UHGV virus genome: UHGV-0089399
Source: a virus
DNA: 22,830 nt
Strand: one strand, 5' to 3'
A program made the translations under genes and the position numbers. The notes under the pieces are model-generated. The model made no database searches. It worked only from the letters and a program-made list of their open reading frames with translations, and was not told the DNA's origin. Shown piece by piece: positions 3,945 through 22,830 of this stretch (positions are counted from its first letter, which is position 1; every line of letters begins with the position of its first letter).

Positions 3945-6551
3945 TTATTTCCTGCAAACTCCAGATGATGTTAATCCATCAAAAATAACCTGCACTCTGG
4001 CAATAACAACATCAACTCCAGAAGTCGTTTCACTTGCATAACCAAGTTTTATTTTAGATACAATATCCTGAGTAAGTTCAGATATTTCAGTTTCTGCAAT
4101 GTTACCAGAGGCCATGTGATTATCGTATGCCATAGAATGAATTCCATTATTGACATCGATTGAACTAGTATGTTTGTGAAAAATAGATGGGTTTACCTGA
4201 AACGAATTTGAACCGATAAGATCAGAAGATACTCCATTCATCACTGCAGTACAGCGTGGAATATTATTATCGGTTATTGTCATATGCAGACGGTTACCAG
4301 TTAACCCCTCACCAAGTGTGACATAATACGCCAATTCTCCACCTGCATATTGTTTCCCCTCAACAATAACAGTAATCCCTCTTAATTTCTGATTAGCTAG
4401 CAAAAACTTATTACTGTCTATATAGCATTTATTTGCGGAACCAAAAACAGCCCCTTCTAAAATATCTGATGAATAGGAATAAATAAGGTCACCAGAAACA
4501 AAGGAAAGAATATCAGATACGTTTCCTTTTTTAGATAAGTTGGGAGAATAGCTATTAACTATTTCATATTGTCCTGTGATAAAATCAAGGTAAACGCCAT
4601 CAGTTTTCATCTCTTTAAAGAAAATGCTATTAAAGCATCCATCAAGAACCGGTGGATATATTCTAGAGCTTGCATAAGCTGTTGGGTGATTCTTATTATT
4701 ACCACTACCAGGCGAATAAACATCTTCGTTAGTCATTGACTTTTTAAGCTTAACAGGAATCATCGGCTGCATATCAATTTTGCAGTTCCCTGAACCACCG
4801 ATGCGAGGATAAAATAAACCACCAAACCTTACAATATTACTACTGAATAGTATTTCGTTATCGTTAAGTGTTATCTCAACGAAGTTTCCAATAAGTTTAA
4901 ATTCAACTGAAAACAAACCAAGTGGAGCAGATAATTTAACAATATTGCGCATAAAAACACCTACAGTCCCTGTTGATGCAGTATAGTGTGTGGTTTCAAA
5001 GGCAGAGCCTGTATATTTCAAGTTAATGAAATTATTATGGTATGAAGACAATTGGAATTGAATCCCAGAACTAAGGATTTCAATATCTACAAATTGAATC
5101 CTTACGGAGTAAGAATATGATAAATCTTCATATTCATAAGGCAATGTAACATCTTTTGAAATAGTTGCCCTCACATAATTACCAGAAACCACATCAACCC
5201 CATCACGTACTGCATTAAAGTAACGATTAAAATCAATAAGCCCAGCGCCAACATACTGCGCATATGAACGAGTCCATCCTGCCATTGCGTTTCGTCCATT
5301 CTGAGCTTCTAAACTGCTAAATTCAGAGTCACTTGTGGTACTTGATGGGAGGATATTTGTACAAAAAACAATTTCAGGCATTGAAGTAATATCATTCAGT
5401 TCAGCCATCAATTTAAAAAAAGTTTTCTGCGGGAAGTTACCAACATCCCAACCATCTCCGTCATTCATGCCAAAAGCAATAATAACAACATCAGGGTTAA
5501 TATCACGAATGTAATCAATCCAGCGTCTGTTCGTGTCTGAATACCATGGGTACTGTGAGTTATAAGAAGTAATTGCTGGTGTATCTTTTCCAAGGTCATA
5601 GTACCTCATTCCACCAATTGCTCTGTTAAATAAAGTAGAACTTGGGAATTTCTCTTGCAAAACTCTCTTAAGATGAGCGGCAAAAATGCTTGATCGATCC
5701 ACTGTGCTTATATTATATGGGGCACTTAAGCTGTCACCAACTAACACTATTTTTGAGTTAGGCCTTGATAATCTCTCAAGTGTTTTAGATGTGACTAAAC
5801 TGCAGGAATTAATGAACTGAGTACTATTTAGCGTCTGTTCAAGTGTATCACCAAATCTGGTACCAACGTATGATGATCCGTTGACACTTGCTAGCTTAAG
5901 GCATAAATCAGCAGTATCTGTAATTGAAAAAATAGGAACAGGACGTCCTAAACTGTCATACCCCTGAATTGAGTTTGCCCTAGAAGATGCTGATGCCATT
6001 TCGCTTACTATCTCAGGGAAGCGGAGTGTTTTAGATATGTTGCTGTTAATAACTCCTTTGATAGATGAGTCTGTATATTTCTTCGTGGAAGCGTCCTGAG
6101 GAAATAATGGATCATCAAGGTTACGAATACGATTGCCGAGTGCATCGTAGTAAGTGGCACTAAATGATGGTTTACGAAGAGCCAGCCGAGCCATGCTTTT
6201 GACTAACTGGATCAGCATCGTTAGCTTATCAAAAGCATCCTCATGCACTTCCGCAAAGAACTTACCCTGATTGCGCAGATCAGTTTCCTGTGTAACCGGT
6301 AGCTCTCGTGATATAGAAATCTTATAGCCATTGGCCAACGCCTTCGACAATATTACATTTCCACCATTGTATCCTCCGGCCCCGGTAACTATATAATCAG
6401 TATCAAGAGTCAGTACGGTGATATTTTCATGAATATCAACAACCTGCACAATCAAATCAGATTTATTGAAAACCCTAAAGGCATACGGAAACGATGTCGT
6501 AACGCCGTTACCGGTGTATTCGTTGTGGTCAACTTCGGTTGAGACCGTCAT
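3945..6551 (-). CDS. Tail fiber/tailspike with T7 gp17-like N-terminal anchor and SGNH/GDSL hydrolase (esterase-like) domain
   Basis: 868 aa. N-terminus (EYTGNGVTTSFPYAFRVF...LTLDTDYIV) resembles the conserved T7 tail-fiber N-terminal domain. Central GDS block (VLVGDSLSAPY), a conserved Gly block and a GxND block (VVIIAFGMNDG) are typical of SGNH hydrolases. GGAG ribosome-binding site upstream. Confidence 0.8.
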   Translation of the reverse strand: MTVSTEVDHNEYTGNGVTTSFPYAFRVFNKSDLIVQVVDIHENITVLTLDTDYIVTGAGGYNGGNVILSKALANGYKISISRELPVTQETDLRNQGKFFAEVHEDAFDKLTMLIQLVKSMARLALRKPSFSATYYDALGNRIRNLDDPLFPQDASTKKYTDSSIKGVINSNISKTLRFPEIVSEMASASSRANSIQGYDSLGRPVPIFSITDTADLCLKLASVNGSSYVGTRFGDTLEQTLNSTQFINSCSLVTSKTLERLSRPNSKIVLVGDSLSAPYNISTVDRSSIFAAHLKRVLQEKFPSSTLFNRAIGGMRYYDLGKDTPAITSYNSQYPWYSDTNRRWIDYIRDINPDVVIIAFGMNDGDGWDVGNFPQKTFFKLMAELNDITSMPEIVFCTNILPSSTTSDSEFSSLEAQNGRNAMAGWTRSYAQYVGAGLIDFNRYFNAVRDGVDVVSGNYVRATISKDVTLPYEYEDLSYSYSVRIQFVDIEILSSGIQFQLSSYHNNFINLKYTGSAFETTHYTASTGTVGVFMRNIVKLSAPLGLFSVEFKLIGNFVEITLNDNEILFSSNIVRFGGLFYPRIGGSGNCKIDMQPMIPVKLKKSMTNEDVYSPGSGNNKNHPTAYASSRIYPPVLDGCFNSIFFKEMKTDGVYLDFITGQYEIVNSYSPNLSKKGNVSDILSFVSGDLIYSYSSDILEGAVFGSANKCYIDSNKFLLANQKLRGITVIVEGKQYAGGELAYYVTLGEGLTGNRLHMTITDNNIPRCTAVMNGVSSDLIGSNSFQVNPSIFHKHTSSIDVNNGIHSMAYDNHMASGNIAETEISELTQDIVSKIKLGYASETTSGVDVVIARVQVIFDGLTSSGVCRK

Positions 6552-7066: not shown

Positions 7067-7143
7067 TCTTGTGCCATAGTAATCGGGCACTGGCAAAATC
7101 CGGTGCCGGGATTGGTCTCCCGGATTACTACAGAGGCACATAT

Positions 7144-7164
7144 GCCGCATAAGCGGTTTTTTTT
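7144..7164 (+). terminator. Weak intrinsic terminator/attenuator-like hairpin with U8 tract
   Basis: Short stem CCGC-ataa-GCGG followed by tttttttt, between the small ORF and the Bro-N gene. The stem is short, so function is uncertain. Confidence 0.35.
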
Positions 7165-7318
7165 ATGTGTAAAGCGCACCTATTCTATGGTGGGCTGTGT
7201 GGGGGCACCGAAAGGTGCGCCGGGTTCCTTTGTAGCCGGTAAGACCAACTCTGCACAGTTCACCACCATCTGATTGGTCTCAGCGGTGGTGATTAACCTA
7301 ACTACAAAGGTGATCGCC

Positions 7319-9549: not shown

Positions 9550-9723
9550 TTACCCAGTAAAAATAAGAGGCCTCCCCTCAATAAGGCTTGCAACAAGAAC
9601 TACTCCCTGCACAACAAAGATGAACCAGCAAATAGCTTGAGTCTGAGGGTTAAGAAAATATTTGTAGCGGTCAATAAATAACAATCCACCAGAAATTATC
9701 ACACTCAAAATAATTAAAAACAC
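9550..9723 (-). CDS. Putative small 2-TM membrane protein (about 58 aa, GTG start), not in the ORF track
   Basis: Hand translation of the minus strand gives VFLIILSVIISGGLLFIDRYKYFLNPQTQAICWFIFVVQGVVLVASLIEGRPLIFTG-stop. AGGAAG lies just upstream of the GTG. Fills the gap between the gp16-like gene and the 98-aa membrane protein. Confidence 0.3.
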   Translation of the reverse strand: MFLIILSVIISGGLLFIDRYKYFLNPQTQAICWFIFVVQGVVLVASLIEGRPLIFTG

Positions 9724-9732
9724 AACACTTCC

Positions 9733-12207
9733 TTATTGCGGAGTGACATCCTGAGGTCGCCACCAGTATGTCTGGTTAAACTCTTTCTTCGAACGTTGCT
9801 CCATTTTACGCAAATAGCCTAGTGAAAAATACTCCTGCATCTGATTAAAGATCATGTGATCGAGAGCCGCCTTCAAGTACCAGAGATTCGCACCTGGCAT
9901 CAAACCTTTCCCCAGCTTCACCAGATCACCACCAGTCTGCTCACTCTTCCCTTCCACAGCATTTAACGGTATGCCCTGAGCAATCTTCACTACGTCATCA
10001 ACCAGACCAGCTACCGGGCCAAGCATCGACGCCAGCGCGCCGCTTCCGTACCTAGTGTGATCTGACAATAAAAAGTCACCATAAAGGCCAAGACCACCAC
10101 CTTTCAGTAGAGCACCAAGCCAGAATTTTGCGGCATCTTCTCCTGTCATCTCTCGAGGATTACGACCAGACGCAAGGTCGTTAAGTTGTTGCGACAAAGC
10201 GCCAAGAATGGTCGTACTGGCAATAAACGTCGCAATATATGCCGCACGCCCACCAGCAGACGGCATACCCATAGCGCGTGACCAGTGACGCATAACAACC
10301 GAGATAGGGAACGATTTAAACAGGAAAACACTTCTCGTTAATTCACCTTTCCATGTTCCACGCTGAATACCAGAACCGGTTATCAGTTGCTCACGTGCTC
10401 CCGGTGTAATAACAGCCATATCAACTTCTTCAGTTACGGCACCGAGCAGTTTACGCATTGCCTCAAATTTCACGCGTTCAGGCTCACCAAGATGTTTAAC
10501 TGCTGAATCAGGGATACGCATAATGCTTTCCGGTGTCAGCATCGTATTATTACCGTTCCCCCAGTCCTCCTGTTGCGCCAGCTTCCATACGCTCCAGTCT
10601 GTGTCAGTAATCCCTTTGCTTTTCAGGATACGAAAATCAGAGTCATCGAGGCTACGAAGGTCTGGTGTTCGTGACACTACTTCTCCCAGGCTTCCCATCA
10701 TGGTTACGCCATAGGCGCGCTTGTGCGCATCTGACCATGCTGTAAGCCCACTGGCACGCATTACCGCCGTTGCCGCCCAACGAGACACTGACGGCCCCAT
10801 ATTATCCATCGCCCAGCGGTTAACGCTGCCAAGTAGAGATTCCATCGCCAGACCAGCGCGGCGCGCCCGCGCAAGTTCTGTACGGTTCGTTGGGTCCATA
10901 GCTTCAAGCTGGTTGCGGAATAACTGGTTCATTGGAAGGTTGGTAACCTTCGCAGACAGATACATGGTTCCAAGATCAGAGAACGATGACAGCAACGCGG
11001 ATCCGAGTCTGCTGGCAACCAGCCAGTTGCGGATATTGTCAGACCATCGCGCGATGTGCGGATTCGCTACAGGCTGTGTCTTTCCGGAAATAAAGTTGTA
11101 CAGATTCTCTGTGTTGTTCGCTAGCCGCTCGACTTTACCGGTTTTACTCGGGTTAGCGGTTGCCGTTTCTGCCTTCACCTGATCAAGAAGAGAGCGGAAA
11201 ACATGATCGGGGTTTGGGCCATATGTTTCCACCAGTGCAATATCTTTACTGATACCTTCCAGGTGACCGACCATGATTTCCCATAGAGAGCGATCGCCAT
11301 AAAGTTGCTGATATTGCAGATAGGAATCTGCATCTTTGAAATGTATCTGTCGTGATGCATTACCACGGTTAGCACGTGCGCCGGAAATTCGCATTCCGGT
11401 ATCAGTAAGCTTATTCAGCCCACCAGTAGCGATCGTGTTATAAGCCTCTCCAAGAAATGCAGACAACTCGGCATCGTTCATCAGTTGTCCATCGGCTCGG
11501 ATATAATATTTGCGATCCAGCTTACCTATAACATCGCTAACCCACTTATCCTTTGATACCGCCCCAACCTTTTCCATAGAATGATGTTGAGGGATCCCCC
11601 AGTTTTCGAGATAGCCAATGTCCCCACCAGCATCATTAAACCGGCGGCGCAGCAGCTCTGTAACTTCTCTCCACGCCTTAGCACCTTTTCTTGCTTTAGC
11701 ATTGCCAGTATTTTGCCCCCGCATTTCATATACCAAGTCACGTACGCCCGCTTCATCTTCAAACAGACCAAAAAAGCGAGGATCAACTGCTTCGAATGCC
11801 TCCTGCAATTGACTCAATGCATAATCACGGGTGGCTTTTGTTCTGGATTCAACAGAGAGGAAATTAGATTTACCGTCTGCATTAAAAGCTATAGTACGGT
11901 TAAGAGCGCCAAGTTTCCCATCAGCCCCTTGATAGCTATTGATAAATTTATCCAATCTCTGACGCGCGGCTATAGTGAGAGCCACACGACGTTTCTTTAA
12001 TGCCGCTTCTCGCTGTAATTCTTCAGATGCCAATTGTGCTGCTCGATATAGCCGCTCTGATTCGGAAAGTTGTCGCCACGACATCGGGTCATCACGAGCA
12101 ATGGAGCGCATATTTCGATAAATGCGGTCTTCAATGTTCTGTATTTCTCGCGCCGTTAACGTGCGCTGCGCCGCCTGCTGGACCGCTTGTATACATTCCT
12201 GTCTCAT
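9733..12207 (-). CDS. Internal virion/ejection protein, gp16-like C-terminal part
   Basis: 824 aa. C-terminal region (FLFKSFPISVVMRHWSRAM...AAYIATFIASTTILGA) resembles the T7 gp16 C-terminal hydrophobic segment as recalled. GAGG ribosome-binding site upstream. Follows the 600-aa gene after a 5-nt gap. Confidence 0.65.
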   Translation of the reverse strand: MRQECIQAVQQAAQRTLTAREIQNIEDRIYRNMRSIARDDPMSWRQLSESERLYRAAQLASEELQREAALKKRRVALTIAARQRLDKFINSYQGADGKLGALNRTIAFNADGKSNFLSVESRTKATRDYALSQLQEAFEAVDPRFFGLFEDEAGVRDLVYEMRGQNTGNAKARKGAKAWREVTELLRRRFNDAGGDIGYLENWGIPQHHSMEKVGAVSKDKWVSDVIGKLDRKYYIRADGQLMNDAELSAFLGEAYNTIATGGLNKLTDTGMRISGARANRGNASRQIHFKDADSYLQYQQLYGDRSLWEIMVGHLEGISKDIALVETYGPNPDHVFRSLLDQVKAETATANPSKTGKVERLANNTENLYNFISGKTQPVANPHIARWSDNIRNWLVASRLGSALLSSFSDLGTMYLSAKVTNLPMNQLFRNQLEAMDPTNRTELARARRAGLAMESLLGSVNRWAMDNMGPSVSRWAATAVMRASGLTAWSDAHKRAYGVTMMGSLGEVVSRTPDLRSLDDSDFRILKSKGITDTDWSVWKLAQQEDWGNGNNTMLTPESIMRIPDSAVKHLGEPERVKFEAMRKLLGAVTEEVDMAVITPGAREQLITGSGIQRGTWKGELTRSVFLFKSFPISVVMRHWSRAMGMPSAGGRAAYIATFIASTTILGALSQQLNDLASGRNPREMTGEDAAKFWLGALLKGGGLGLYGDFLLSDHTRYGSGALASMLGPVAGLVDDVVKIAQGIPLNAVEGKSEQTGGDLVKLGKGLMPGANLWYLKAALDHMIFNQMQEYFSLGYLRKMEQRSKKEFNQTYWWRPQDVTPQ

Positions 12208-20005: not shown

Positions 20006-20613
20006 CAGGACAACCTCGCAATGGTAAACTCATCAACCGGTGGCTGTGGTTCCTGTGATTCATTCTGGCTATGCGAGCCAGCACTAAGAATCACGCGATT
20101 GTACATATTGAGGGCAAACGTACCGAGGTCTGCATTCCCAGTCAGCGCCATGTTAATAGCTGCCGCAAGACGCCAGGCCAACGCCTCCATAAAAATGGCA
20201 TCAAACATGTTCACATCTGTAACGCGAGAGACATACTTGAGCCATGCCTGAGGCTGGTCTGTGTAGATCAACTTTCCTGTTCCGTTGGTGTCTGCACCAA
20301 CTTCGTACTGAACGCGCATTGATGCTGTTGGATTGCGTACACCAGGAAGCATAATTTCAGTAATGCGCAGACAATCTGACGGGTACTGGTACGCATATTC
20401 CCAGTCAGGCGGTGGATTGCTCGTATCTGCAAGCGCCACGCGTTTGGTAGCAAAGTTCCAGTCAAAATCAGAAAGCACAGCATCACGGCAGGCCTCAAAG
20501 TGCAGCGAACATTCCCCCGCTTCCTTGCTGGCTTCCGTCAGGCTGTTAATGCTGCGGCTGTTGCCAATATTGGACAGCGCACGATTGCAGATCTCTACTA
20601 CAGAGGCCATCAC
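20005..20613 (-). CDS. Tail tubular protein A, gp11-like
   Basis: About 200 aa. N-terminus (ICNRALSNIGNSRSINSLTE) resembles T7 gp11 (VNDILASIGEPPVSTLE) as recalled. GGAGGTGA ribosome-binding site upstream. Size and order match the T7 tail module. Confidence 0.65.
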   Translation of the reverse strand: MMASVVEICNRALSNIGNSRSINSLTEASKEAGECSLHFEACRDAVLSDFDWNFATKRVALADTSNPPPDWEYAYQYPSDCLRITEIMLPGVRNPTASMRVQYEVGADTNGTGKLIYTDQPQAWLKYVSRVTDVNMFDAIFMEALAWRLAAAINMALTGNADLGTFALNMYNRVILSAGSHSQNESQEPQPPVDEFTIARLS

Positions 20614-20933
20614 TCACCTCCGTTACCGTACAGAGTTTCAGCCGCTGATTTTTCTACATCCCCGGAAACAGGAGCGATCGCCATATCAGTGATCTGCAGA
20701 TCGGCGCTGCGATTAACGCCATCGTCAGTTTCTCTGGCAGACAGGCCTCGAATAACAGCCTTTGCAGTTATCATCACTTCTGTTCCGACGCCCTGAGGTT
20801 GCGCCTTCAGCTTATTCAATGTGTCGTTATTCAGCGTGATGCACAGCCCCCACGGGTATTCATCGCGAGTTCTGGTTTCTCCGCTCTCATCCTGGTAGCT
20901 GTCAGTGCCGGTTTTGAGGTTTACGAGTTCCAT
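20610..20933 (-). CDS. Hypothetical protein (107 aa), translationally coupled to the gp11-like gene
   Basis: Start MELVNLK at 20933, preceded by a GGAG ribosome-binding site and a GC hairpin. Stop overlaps the gp11-like start. The track ORF extends further upstream into the ArdC gene end and is probably too long. Confidence 0.4.
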   Translation of the reverse strand: MELVNLKTGTDSYQDESGETRTRDEYPWGLCITLNNDTLNKLKAQPQGVGTEVMITAKAVIRGLSARETDDGVNRSADLQITDMAIAPVSGDVEKSAAETLYGNGGE

Positions 20934-20950
20934 ATACACTCCTGCAATAA

Positions 20951-20966
20951 AGGGGCCGAAGCCCCT
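20951..20966 (-). terminator. GC-rich hairpin (AGGGGC-ttcg-GCCCCT) at the 3' end of the ArdC-like gene
   Basis: Perfect 6-bp stem with a UUCG-type loop, followed on the minus strand by TTATTG. Overlaps the ArdC-like stop codon. Confidence 0.4.
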
Positions 20967-21960
20967 ACCCTGCAATGTCATCAGGTTGGGTGTCGCCGAA
21001 TAGCTGCGCATCGAGACGTTCGCCGATGAACCGCACGACCTGACGCACATCGCTCAGAACCGAGAAGATGAATGCAGGTTCCGCGCGGATCTTCTCCAGC
21101 CAGCCTTTCAAGTAGGCGACGTTCTCTGAACGGATGCCGCTCGAAATCCCGAGGCCGCAACCGGCCAGAGCTGCCGAAAATTCAGCGACCAGCTCCTCGC
21201 GGCCGTAAGCCTGACGCGACCGATCCTCGAAGTGCCGGTCCAGACGGTCGGCAGTACCCGTCGAATGGCTCATCTCGTGAAGAAGCGTGGAATAAAATGC
21301 CTCCAGATCGGAGAACTGCTCTTTGAGAGGCACGACGATAATATCGTCCGCCGGAGAGTAGGACGCCCGGTCGCCGACCTTCAGGCGGATCGGACAGACC
21401 CAGGATTGCGCCTCGAGCATACGCTCGAGAGTCGGATGCGCCGTGCCTGCGGGACGCCGGGGATGAGCCTGCCGGTCGAAGATCTGCTGCCAACGCTGCG
21501 GATACCGTTCGGCAAAGTCCGTTTGGTCGAGATTCAGTACCGGGTAAAAACGCAAGCTGAACCGCAGCACATACTCCTTGCGCTCGGATTCGGAAAGATT
21601 TTTGAAATCCTCTACCGAAAGATAGCGGGGTTTGCCTTCAACCGGAGTGGCGGCCAGGTAAAAGGGCTTCCAGAAAATCACCGGAAATTGTTTCGAGCCC
21701 TTGCGGACCTGCAAACCGAGTTCTTTGGCCTGCTTAAAGGTGACGAATACAGGGCTCTGGTAGCCCTTAACCTCCGTAAGCATAAGCAACGTCAGAATGT
21801 TCGCGCCGGTATAATTCCTCCCGGAGACAATGTTGTAGGGAAGAACGCCCTGTCCGAAGATCCACGGCTTCTGCCAGGATTCGGTCATGGACTCGATCTT
21901 GGCGATCATCAATTCTGCGAAATGCGAAGAGACTTTCTCGAGAACATCAGAATGTGACAT
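20965..21960 (-). CDS. ArdC-like antirestriction protein (ssDNA-binding N-domain plus zincin-like metalloprotease C-domain)
   Basis: 331 aa. C-terminal metalloprotease motif LLHEMSHSTGTADRLDR (HExxH followed by TG...RL.R), characteristic of the ArdC family. GC-rich coding sequence unlike the neighbouring phage genes. Confidence 0.7.
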   Translation of the reverse strand: MSHSDVLEKVSSHFAELMIAKIESMTESWQKPWIFGQGVLPYNIVSGRNYTGANILTLLMLTEVKGYQSPVFVTFKQAKELGLQVRKGSKQFPVIFWKPFYLAATPVEGKPRYLSVEDFKNLSESERKEYVLRFSLRFYPVLNLDQTDFAERYPQRWQQIFDRQAHPRRPAGTAHPTLERMLEAQSWVCPIRLKVGDRASYSPADDIIVVPLKEQFSDLEAFYSTLLHEMSHSTGTADRLDRHFEDRSRQAYGREELVAEFSAALAGCGLGISSGIRSENVAYLKGWLEKIRAEPAFIFSVLSDVRQVVRFIGERLDAQLFGDTQPDDIAG

Positions 21961-22421
21961 AACGTAAATGCAGACTTTATCCTCCTGCGCCGGAGTTCTA
22001 AACTGCCTGAAACGCTCAGAACAGCGATGCAGACTCAGCCGATCCGGGCGACTGCTTCAAAGGCAAGGACCCGGAAGGAAATATTTGCCGTCGAGACATC
22101 GACGGGCGCAGCGGACAAATATTTCCGAATCGGGCCAGGCGGCCAGCCTAACCAGGCTGGACGATCCTTGCCGCTGTCGAACGGATGTCGGCTAACTTTG
22201 CATCCATGTTGTGAGTGGAAATACCGCTCTCCCCCGGATGACGAGTTCGCTTGTCGATCGCGGTCGTCCGCGAGCTGAGCCCGGCGGCATAGTCGCCGGG
22301 AGCTGCAAGTTCAGGGGGCCCGAAGGTCGTGCGACAGGATCGGAGATCCGCACGGCGAGATAGCCGGTGGTCAACCGGCAACCGGCTATGGCCGGGTCCG
22401 ATGAATTTCTATGTGATGAAT

Positions 22422-22448
22422 CACAAAAAAAGAGGGGCTTAGCCCCTC
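22422..22448 (-). terminator. Rho-independent terminator
   Basis: Stem GAGGGGC-tta-GCCCCTC (22432-22448), followed on the minus strand by TTTTTTTGTG. Lies just downstream of the stop of the 22454-22825 ORF. Confidence 0.6.
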
Positions 22449-22453
22449 CTCCA

Positions 22454-22825
22454 TCATCCAATGATGTGGATTTCTCCGGAAATCCCGAGTTCACGAAGGT
22501 TGCGAAGCAGGCGGCCGAGATGTTTAGCCTCCTGCTCCTTCGCATTGGAACCAGGCGTATCGAGCCAGGTGTTGATGTCTGACTTGTAATTGTCGGTCCG
22601 TTCGACAAGATCATCGATAACATTCACCAGGTTGTCTAAATACACCTCCGGAACACGGTTCGTCTCGGTTCCGGAATCATCCAGAAGGCGGACTTCGAAA
22701 AGATCCAGACCCTCGTCGTAGAGCACAGCGACCCAGCCTTTGTGCTTGAAACCACTGACATGGAACCAAAGGCCCTCCATATCATCCCTACGATACGGAG
22801 CCCGTTTCTCCAAGCCCCACGACAT
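22454..22825 (-). CDS. Hypothetical acidic protein (123 aa as seen; may extend beyond the window edge)
   Basis: Open frame reaching the last codons of the window, ended by a clear terminator. No recognisable motif. GC-rich. Confidence 0.35.
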   Translation of the reverse strand: MSWGLEKRAPYRRDDMEGLWFHVSGFKHKGWVAVLYDEGLDLFEVRLLDDSGTETNRVPEVYLDNLVNVIDDLVERTDNYKSDINTWLDTPGSNAKEQEAKHLGRLLRNLRELGISGEIHIIG

Positions 22826-22830
22826 CTGAA

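Follow-up and report, generated by a model that had tools for sequence, protein, structure and literature searches.

On balance, we consider it probable that a repeated element of about 450 nt heads the transcription units of an establishment and anti-defence gene array in Bacteroidales integrative conjugative elements (ICEs), where, as sequence comparison suggests, it would serve as a promoter that works only on single-stranded DNA (ssDNA). We hold evenly balanced the wider proposal that Bacteroidales ICEs evolved ssDNA promoters independently, with a -7 box of their own placed 'backwards' on the template strand. The copy described here (about 450-470 nt; 21961-22430, + strand) was delimited by nhmmer copies and a 61-copy alignment (A3) in UHGV virus genome UHGV-0089399, whose whole analysed stretch of 22,830 nt is called the window below. 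We propose that folding takes place on the + strand, the template of the anti-restriction gene ArdC; the served genes lie on the minus strand.

The repeated element is unrelated to the E. coli phage filling the rest of the window. Positions 1-20966 showed 96-97% identity to E. coli Uetakevirus phages (phiv142-3, phiV10), a similarity that ends at 20966, and the sequence from 20941 to the window end was 92-97% identical to human-gut metagenome contigs. The only sequence common to the phage and the Bacteroidales element is an 18-nt GC-rich terminator hairpin (AAAGGGGCCGAAGCCCCT; 20949-20966). Since the two sources meet only in this common hairpin, the contig is probably chimeric; most likely the window is an assembly chimera, or else a recombinant at the 18-nt microhomology. 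The part beyond 20966 had no match in 5,426 complete E. coli genomes, and the phage collection contained no DNA similarity to the element. Within the phage part, and unrelated to the repeated element, adjacent Rfam matches to isrK (73.7 bits) and C4 antisense RNA (78.6 bits) are located at 7087-7270 (+), near an anti-repressor-like region. A listed 146-aa ORF at 20610-21050 (-), which overlaps ArdC, encodes a phage capsid staple protein (gp10-like), for which an internal ATG (20933; MELVN...) is the most likely start, in agreement with the 107-aa PHROG profile.

The element lies in the gap (21961-22453) that separates the start of the ArdC gene it serves (20965-21960) from the stop of the preceding gene (22454-22825+), both genes being on the minus strand. 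A first-pass annotation, made from the letters of the sequence, had placed the stretch upstream of an ArdC-like gene; Pfam (ArdcN, 1e-29; MPTase-PolyVal, 3e-28) and PHROG (anti-restriction protein, 6e-59) matches identified a true ArdC. The stretch had also been called GC-rich, in agreement with a GC content of about 0.60 (phage part, about 0.50), and devoid of a convincing ORF. ORFs of 75-83 aa are present, yet they are not conserved among 60 homologous copies: the ORF from the single conserved ATG varies from 11 to 88 aa with shifting frames, and 638 of 770 gap runs in the alignment are not multiples of three. A protein-coding reading of the element was rejected, as neither frames nor ORF lengths are conserved across the copies.

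An inverted-repeat check located all of the perfect stems that had been listed for the stretch, namely GGAAATATTTG and CAAATATTTCC (22077-22087 and 22116-22126; 100% complementary) around CCGTCGA-gaca-TCGACGG (22088-22105), CCAGCCT-aacc-AGGCTGG (22143-22160), TCGCGG-tcgt-CCGCGA (22258-22273) and the tandem CAACCGG repeat CAACCGGCAACCGG (22373-22386), the last within a ATAGCCGGT / ACCGGCTAT stem (22360-22389). The longest helix was absent from that list. It is a 28-nt long-range pairing of 22015-22042 with 22188-22215, which closes a branched hairpin of about 205 nt containing most of the small stems. Folding of both strands, a check that the annotation had proposed, gave energies that no dinucleotide shuffle equalled on either strand, with RNA parameters (+ strand -231.9 kcal/mol, z -7.3; - strand -212.3, z -4.8) as well as with DNA parameters (+ strand -121.5, z -8.2; - strand -109.1, z -6.2). 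A covariance-model search of the region (cmscan, Rfam 15) revealed no family at gathering scores, STAXI included; at E values up to 10 it returned chance-level matches only (14-21 bits), and no riboswitch, GOLLD, ROOL or HEARO. A search for tRNA and tmRNA genes in the region found none.

Starting from an ArdC relative in a contig of the viral collection, which carries the stretch twice and upstream of two different genes, pattern scans followed by an nhmmer profile revealed 222 copies of the element on 128 loci. The named carriers are Alistipes montrealensis (in strain kh20 on scaffold3, at about 584-600 kb) and two MAGs, one of Alistipes and one of Bacteroidaceae; the remaining copies are from human-gut metagenome contigs. 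A scan of the genome collection with CGACAGCGGCAAGGATCG gave mostly chance matches in GC-rich genomes, only those in L077, L080, L089 and L094 being real. More than one copy is present on 57 loci, with a maximum of five within 10 kb. Neighbouring copies are 743-4251 nt apart (3' end to 3' end) and most commonly about 750-930 nt, a distance that corresponds to one element plus one small gene. In all loci except three the copies are co-oriented, and the convergent copies in these three loci speak against an ssDNA promoter. The convergent pairs (L191, L193 and L236) are separated by about 0.9-1.3 kb and are not predicted by a one-strand model; at least one of these contigs, L191, has very low coverage. 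In several copies the central hairpin is matched by the profile on its opposite strand as well, because this hairpin is strongly palindromic. Modules have been exchanged between copies, and the resulting mosaics suggest that the repeats recombine frequently.

Each copy in the non-redundant 61-copy alignment A3 extends from just past the terminator of the previous gene to the ATG of the next, unrelated gene, and conservation reaches the start codons of these unrelated genes. In the window, a terminator scan found that the preceding gene ends in an intrinsic terminator at 22428-22452 on the minus strand (GGAGGAGGGGCTAAGCCCCTC and then a T run), and most copies in A3 are preceded by equivalent terminators. 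Directly after the terminator, at the far edge of the element, lies the palindrome TGTGATGAATCACA (TGTGAT-N2-ATCACA; 22412-22425; A3 columns about 75-100), which is present in 21 of the 61 copies and may be an operator.

The genes directly downstream of the copies belong to six families: an unnamed 142-aa family (43 copies directly upstream), ArdC (34), an 83-aa Zn-ribbon-like protein (15), WYL_2 (13), PcfK-like (5) and DUF7688 (3). SSB, orphan methylases (N6 and C5), an LPD29-domain protein and a Phd/YoeB pair are also found in the arrays. The 142-aa family, which is the commonest gene behind the element and often occurs twice per array, shares the motif GFKH.G.V, has no Pfam or NCBIfam match and is a candidate early or anti-defence protein. 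The 123-aa ORF of the window (22454-22825+) is a member of this family; the gene (22454-22830, minus strand) probably has its 5' end beyond the window. Searching viral contigs with the 123-aa protein gave weak, uninformative matches only. In the close relative L186, a second copy of the element precedes the equivalent gene, and L210 contains members of the family at 5811-6239 and 9576-10004.

The order of genes from integrase to mob genes was drawn from two loci. In L210, a tyrosine recombinase of the conjugative-transposon type is followed by five element-headed units and then ArdC; in L137, ArdC is followed by small genes, a C5 methylase, a 1.85-kb gap and MobA-like, MobB and MobC-like genes. 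The MobB relaxase of L137 matched NF041495 (NCBIfam equivalog) with 219.6 bits against a cut-off of 200, and the MobC-like protein is the coupling protein. The element belongs to a Bacteroidales (Alistipes-like) ICE with MobB/MobC and not to a plasmid, and this corrects the first-pass annotation, which had compared the stretch to plasmid leading regions. Nearly all genes on the integrase-to-mob path lie on one strand, so that the units point towards the mob genes, as the leading genes of F point towards oriT. According to the usual rule mob/tra genes enter last, and we assume that the array side of the conjugative element enters the recipient first. The gap in L137 (5027-6881), located between the C5 methylase and the MobA-like gene, is GC-rich and contains implausible ORFs only; the oriT of the conjugative element may lie here. 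A Phd/YoeB pair lies between element copies in L210 (8463-8983), parallel to flmAB in F. There, flmAB (hok/sok-like) is found between Frpo1 and Frpo2 and has been suggested to guard against recombinational deletion.

An integrase that adjoins an array of units, each consisting of a structured element and a small gene, and copies that have exchanged modules would also be expected if the neighbouring tyrosine recombinase shuffled gene cassettes by way of the element, as a folded site similar to attC. We regard this explanation as highly improbable. The element is about 450 nt long and lies upstream of genes, while attC sites measure roughly 57-141 nt; the integrase (Arm-DNA-bind_5 and SAM_5 domains) is of the conjugative-transposon type and co-oriented with the array; and homologous recombination among repeats of 75-95% identity explains the mosaicism. 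Membership of the integron attC sites, which requires an IntI-type integrase and an imperfect palindrome of <150 nt downstream of the cassettes, was rejected on the grounds of length, upstream position and integrase domains.

RNAalifold and single-sequence folds revealed a long branched hairpin at 22013-22217 (+) with two apical hairpins, followed by a second domain at 22231-22318 (+). The former is the proposed promoter hairpin, and was detected as an inverted repeat, in MFE and centroid folds, by RNAalifold and by pair counts. Its basal stem pairs 22013-22032 with 22198-22217, and its middle stems pair 22037-22069 with 22165-22193. Apical hairpin 1 (22077-22126), formed by the GGAAATATTTG / CAAATATTTCC stem, showed compensatory changes at A4 columns 121/155 (AU 33, GC 26) and 128/134 (GC 39, AU 19). 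Apical hairpin 2 (CGGCCAGCCT-aacc-AGGCTGGACG; 22140-22163), supported by the inverted repeat and pair counts, has a stem that is swapped wholesale between copies with pairing retained (helix 11, five pairs with two-sided changes). In the second domain (helices 12-17), a helix between a C5 run (22231-22235) and a G5 run (22314-22318) encloses three hairpins, including TCGCGG-tcgt-CCGCGA and GCCCGGCGGC...GCCGGGAGC. It is followed by a variable module (22320-22400; A3 columns 100-195), which in the window copy is of type A and forms two hairpins, one at 22328-22356 and one at 22360-22389 that contains the CAACCGG repeat. Other copies carry a type B module that is unrelated to type A and has equally GC-rich hairpins. 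The sequence from 22231 to 22400, about half of the element, is given no role by an ssDNA promoter, which counts against that reading.

A structured element as proposed by the first-pass annotation presupposes conserved structure, and covariation was found in the 22013-22217 hairpin. In the + strand alignment A4, 97 pairs were counted with 93.7% of cells paired, compared to 35-45% with slid partners, a percentage that is inflated because the structure was partly derived from the window sequence. Two-sided changes, which are less affected, were observed at 19 pairs (202 cells) compared to 3-9 pairs (5-29 cells) in the slid controls. None of 500 shuffles matched the observed values for four of the five measures. 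The DNA-parameter MFE of the window copy alone did not reproduce the basal stem, which the centroid and alignment-based folds did; for the pair counts the alifold structure was therefore merged with the apical helices of the window.

The two strands differ in their ability to form this structure. Of the 61 copies, 59 are more stable on the + strand when RNA parameters are used and 58 when DNA parameters are used, and RNAalifold energies were -248.9 kcal/mol for the + strand versus -219.4 for the - strand. Wobble counts over whole predicted structures are uninformative, because each strand's own prediction favours itself; informative are region-by-region counts over the + strand consensus helices and energies of the individual copies. 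Across the 17-pair basal stem we counted 178 G.T cells on the + strand versus 6 A.C, with 99.2% of cells paired on the + strand versus 82.3% on the - strand, and across the 22231-22318 domain 92 G.T cells on the + strand versus 9 A.C. An RNA of + polarity containing the whole hairpin would have to start in the variable downstream genes, which is unlikely, and ssDNA is therefore the more natural folded species.

Promoters recognised by sigma-ABfr in Bacteroides have a -7 box, TAnnTTTG, and a -33 box, TTTG, located 19-21 nt upstream and not always detectable (PMC7366714). The sequence TAACTTTG at 22193-22200 (+) agrees with the -7 consensus. It is located on the 3' arm, close to the base of the hairpin, and the central bases of the box are opposite a variable internal loop. 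At this alignment column, TAnnTTYG is present in all 61 copies on the + strand only, and the exact TAnnTTTG in 53 of them; the gene-sense strand of the 61 copies has no canonical -7 box at any shared position. At the frequency of the motif in the window, about one per 3 kb on each strand, the probability of a chance occurrence in a given arm of 60 nt is about 0.02. Five variants of the box were found, all of them TAnCTTYG, compared to 15 variants, of variable length, of the facing segment of the 5' arm, which argues that the box is retained for its sequence and not for pairing. A CTTG with an invariant spacer of 22 nt to the -7 box (22167-22170, inside the perfectly paired GGCAAGGA / TCCTTGCC stem) is present in 53 of 60 copies; as it deviates from TTTG-N19-21, it is a candidate -33 box only, and both this deviation and the seven copies without even this -33-like box are evidence against an ssDNA promoter. 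Compared with ordinary sigma-ABfr promoters, the element has the same -7 box and an imperfect -33 match, and its box is on the strand opposite to the gene. A scan for sigma-70 promoters inside 22013-22217 detected no -35/-10 pair, the best by eye being a poor TTGCCG-N19-TAACTT, and a sigma-70 promoter in the hairpin was rejected on this empty scan.

On double-stranded DNA, the -7 box would drive antisense transcription; this is possibly its real job, which counts against an ssDNA promoter. The TAACTTTG box would then fire rightwards from about 22206 and yield a structured RNA of about 220 nt (22206-22450), and this RNA would run against the upstream gene, keeping the array silent or insulated. 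A canonical box on the + strand, the wobble asymmetry of the 22231-22318 domain in favour of that strand (92 versus 9) and a hairpin at 22432-22448 that could terminate such an RNA are consistent with this. Still, the transcript would include only the right arm of the 205-nt hairpin, which shows the clearest covariation and the strongest asymmetry; the 22432-22448 hairpin is not followed by a T run on the + strand; and the variable module exists in two unrelated types. We consider an antisense promoter improbable as the sole explanation, and its role in silencing or insulating the array equally so, though it may coexist with an ssDNA promoter.

A transcript of the opposite polarity, initiated at a weak promoter at the far end of the element and perhaps under the control of the TGTGAT-N2-ATCACA palindrome, would make the element a long structured 5' UTR whose RNA fold controls translation or stability, for example with a C-rich run masking the SD-like GGAGG. 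In agreement with this, conservation reaches the ATG, the sense strand is itself well folded (z -4.8 with RNA and -6.2 with DNA parameters), either CCCCCTG (22312-22318) or a local CUCC is available as a pairing partner of CAGGAGG, and some copies have relaxed TWnnTTTG motifs and the palindrome at their 5' edge. The strict conservation of the SD-like GGAGGA and the conservation of the leader count against an ssDNA promoter as such and suggest selection at the RNA level as well. However, the sense strand has no canonical -7 box in any of the 61 copies and is the less stable one in 59 of 61, its basal stem would turn 178 G.T cells of the other strand into A.C mismatches, and the helix between the C run and GGAGG contains an invariant C.A mismatch in the sense reading. 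In addition, Bacteroidetes have been reported not to use classical SD sequences (PMC7366714). Taken with these points, a 5' UTR appears unlikely to us.

The promoter active on ssDNA that we prefer would work as follows. DNA of a conjugative element enters the recipient as a single strand, and we infer that this strand is the template of the served genes, the + strand of the window. Region 22013-22217 would fold into the long imperfect hairpin, whose 3' arm, carrying the partly unpaired -7 box TAACTTTG, would act as the non-template strand. Being on the strand opposite to the served gene, the box is usable for that gene only by way of such a fold-back. According to the model, the unpaired middle of the box would be already 'melted', and the position on the 3' arm near the base is where a non-template -10-like element would have to sit to aim RNA polymerase into the gene. 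RNA polymerase may then start near 22022-22027 on the 5' arm, opposite a small loop 4-6 nt past the -7 box, and transcription would leave the hairpin and proceed into the following gene, in this copy ArdC. The mRNA leader predicted from this hairpin geometry is about 65 nt long (21961-22027, minus strand) and contains the invariant GCATCGCTGTTC, a CUCC...GGAG hairpin (21982-21995) and the SD-like CAGGAGGA. Synthesis of the complementary strand would abolish the 22013-22217 hairpin and leave the box facing away from the gene, and the unit would be silent.

A similar logic is known from the F plasmid. The promoter boxes of Frpo1 and Frpo2 are restored by a stem-loop, with the T-strand as template; the two copies are nearly identical, and the few kb that separate them include a toxin-antitoxin locus (PMC9849209, PMC11541004). 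The early genes of the F leading region are directed towards oriT, with the transferred strand as their template (PMC9849209). Like Frpo1/Frpo2 and the ssi of ColIb-P9, the element described here is non-coding, a few hundred nt long and forms a long stem-loop, and several near-identical copies precede early genes (ssb, psiB and ardA there; ArdC, PcfK and an SSB unit here). In both systems the incoming strand is by orientation the template of the genes, the transfer strand being assumed in our case, the promoter box is located on the arm that mimics the non-template strand, and a toxin-antitoxin locus lies between copies. The differences are equally clear. The hairpin described here is branched and followed by a further 200 nt of structure, it has a Bacteroidota -7 box and no sigma-70 pair, it resides in a Bacteroidales ICE with MobB/MobC and not in an IncF/IncI plasmid, and its activity is predicted.

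Of the Frpo/ssi family, with which the first-pass annotation had proposed an alignment, the element shows neither the sequence similarity nor the sigma-70 pair: blastn with 11-nt words of 21900-22500 against 72,556 PLSDB plasmids gave no match. Samuel and Burstein define Frpo/ssi homology by BLAST at E 1e-6, a level the element does not reach in this search. In the absence of both sequence similarity and sigma-70 boxes, the element stands outside the Frpo family, though the logic agrees in every point. In its layout it resembles Frpo, with a stable template-strand stem-loop that has a -7 box on the non-template-like arm aimed at the gene; in location, several copies lie upstream of establishment and anti-defence genes, on the side assumed to enter first. 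Among the options originally raised, the comparative evidence favours an Frpo-type element and weakens a structured 5' UTR or ncRNA, because the element is multi-copy, heads the units of the array, belongs to a conjugative element, folds better on the template strand and positions its box like Frpo. STAXI (Rfam; Weinberg et al. 2010) is likewise structured, non-coding and a neighbour of ssb, anti-restriction and integrase genes, and its authors raised a possible function in ssDNA (PMC2864571). Unlike our element, which has no Rfam match, it consists of a short pseudoknot in two or three repeats.

Frpo was first described for both transcription and primer synthesis, as stated in the title of Masai and Arai 1997 (via PMC11541004). 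Folded ssDNA of the present element might likewise recruit primase or RNA polymerase for single-strand initiation only, with gene expression being incidental. The distribution of several copies over the first-entering region and the folding of the + strand would suit such a priming signal. Every copy, however, lies after a terminator and abuts a start codon, which is the layout expected for gene expression, and a primer made from this geometry would be the 5' end of the mRNA, so that the two roles are inseparable by sequence alone. Priming as the only function seems improbable to us; a priming signal could coexist with the ssDNA promoter.

The main survey of leading regions, which searched by similarity to Frpo or by sigma-70 boxes, does not mention Bacteroidota (PMC11541004). 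In the literature searched, we found no paper linking ssDNA promoters with Bacteroides. To our knowledge, ssDNA promoters are known experimentally only from enterobacterial plasmids (Frpo). If our interpretation is correct, a non-homologous version with a Bacteroidota -7 box would demonstrate a general strategy with more than one origin. The served genes would be switched on for only minutes while the incoming DNA is single-stranded, and be off or transcribed in antisense afterwards. This would explain how ArdC, PcfK/Acr-like proteins and SSB are expressed in abundant gut conjugative elements before the complementary strand is made. With its 222 copies, the element would provide a sequence signature for locating leading regions and mark a genome-wide catalogue of early anti-defence genes, including the abundant 142-aa family. 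It would thereby offer a route to new anti-defence genes of Bacteroidales, and a transfer-triggered promoter for engineering these bacteria.
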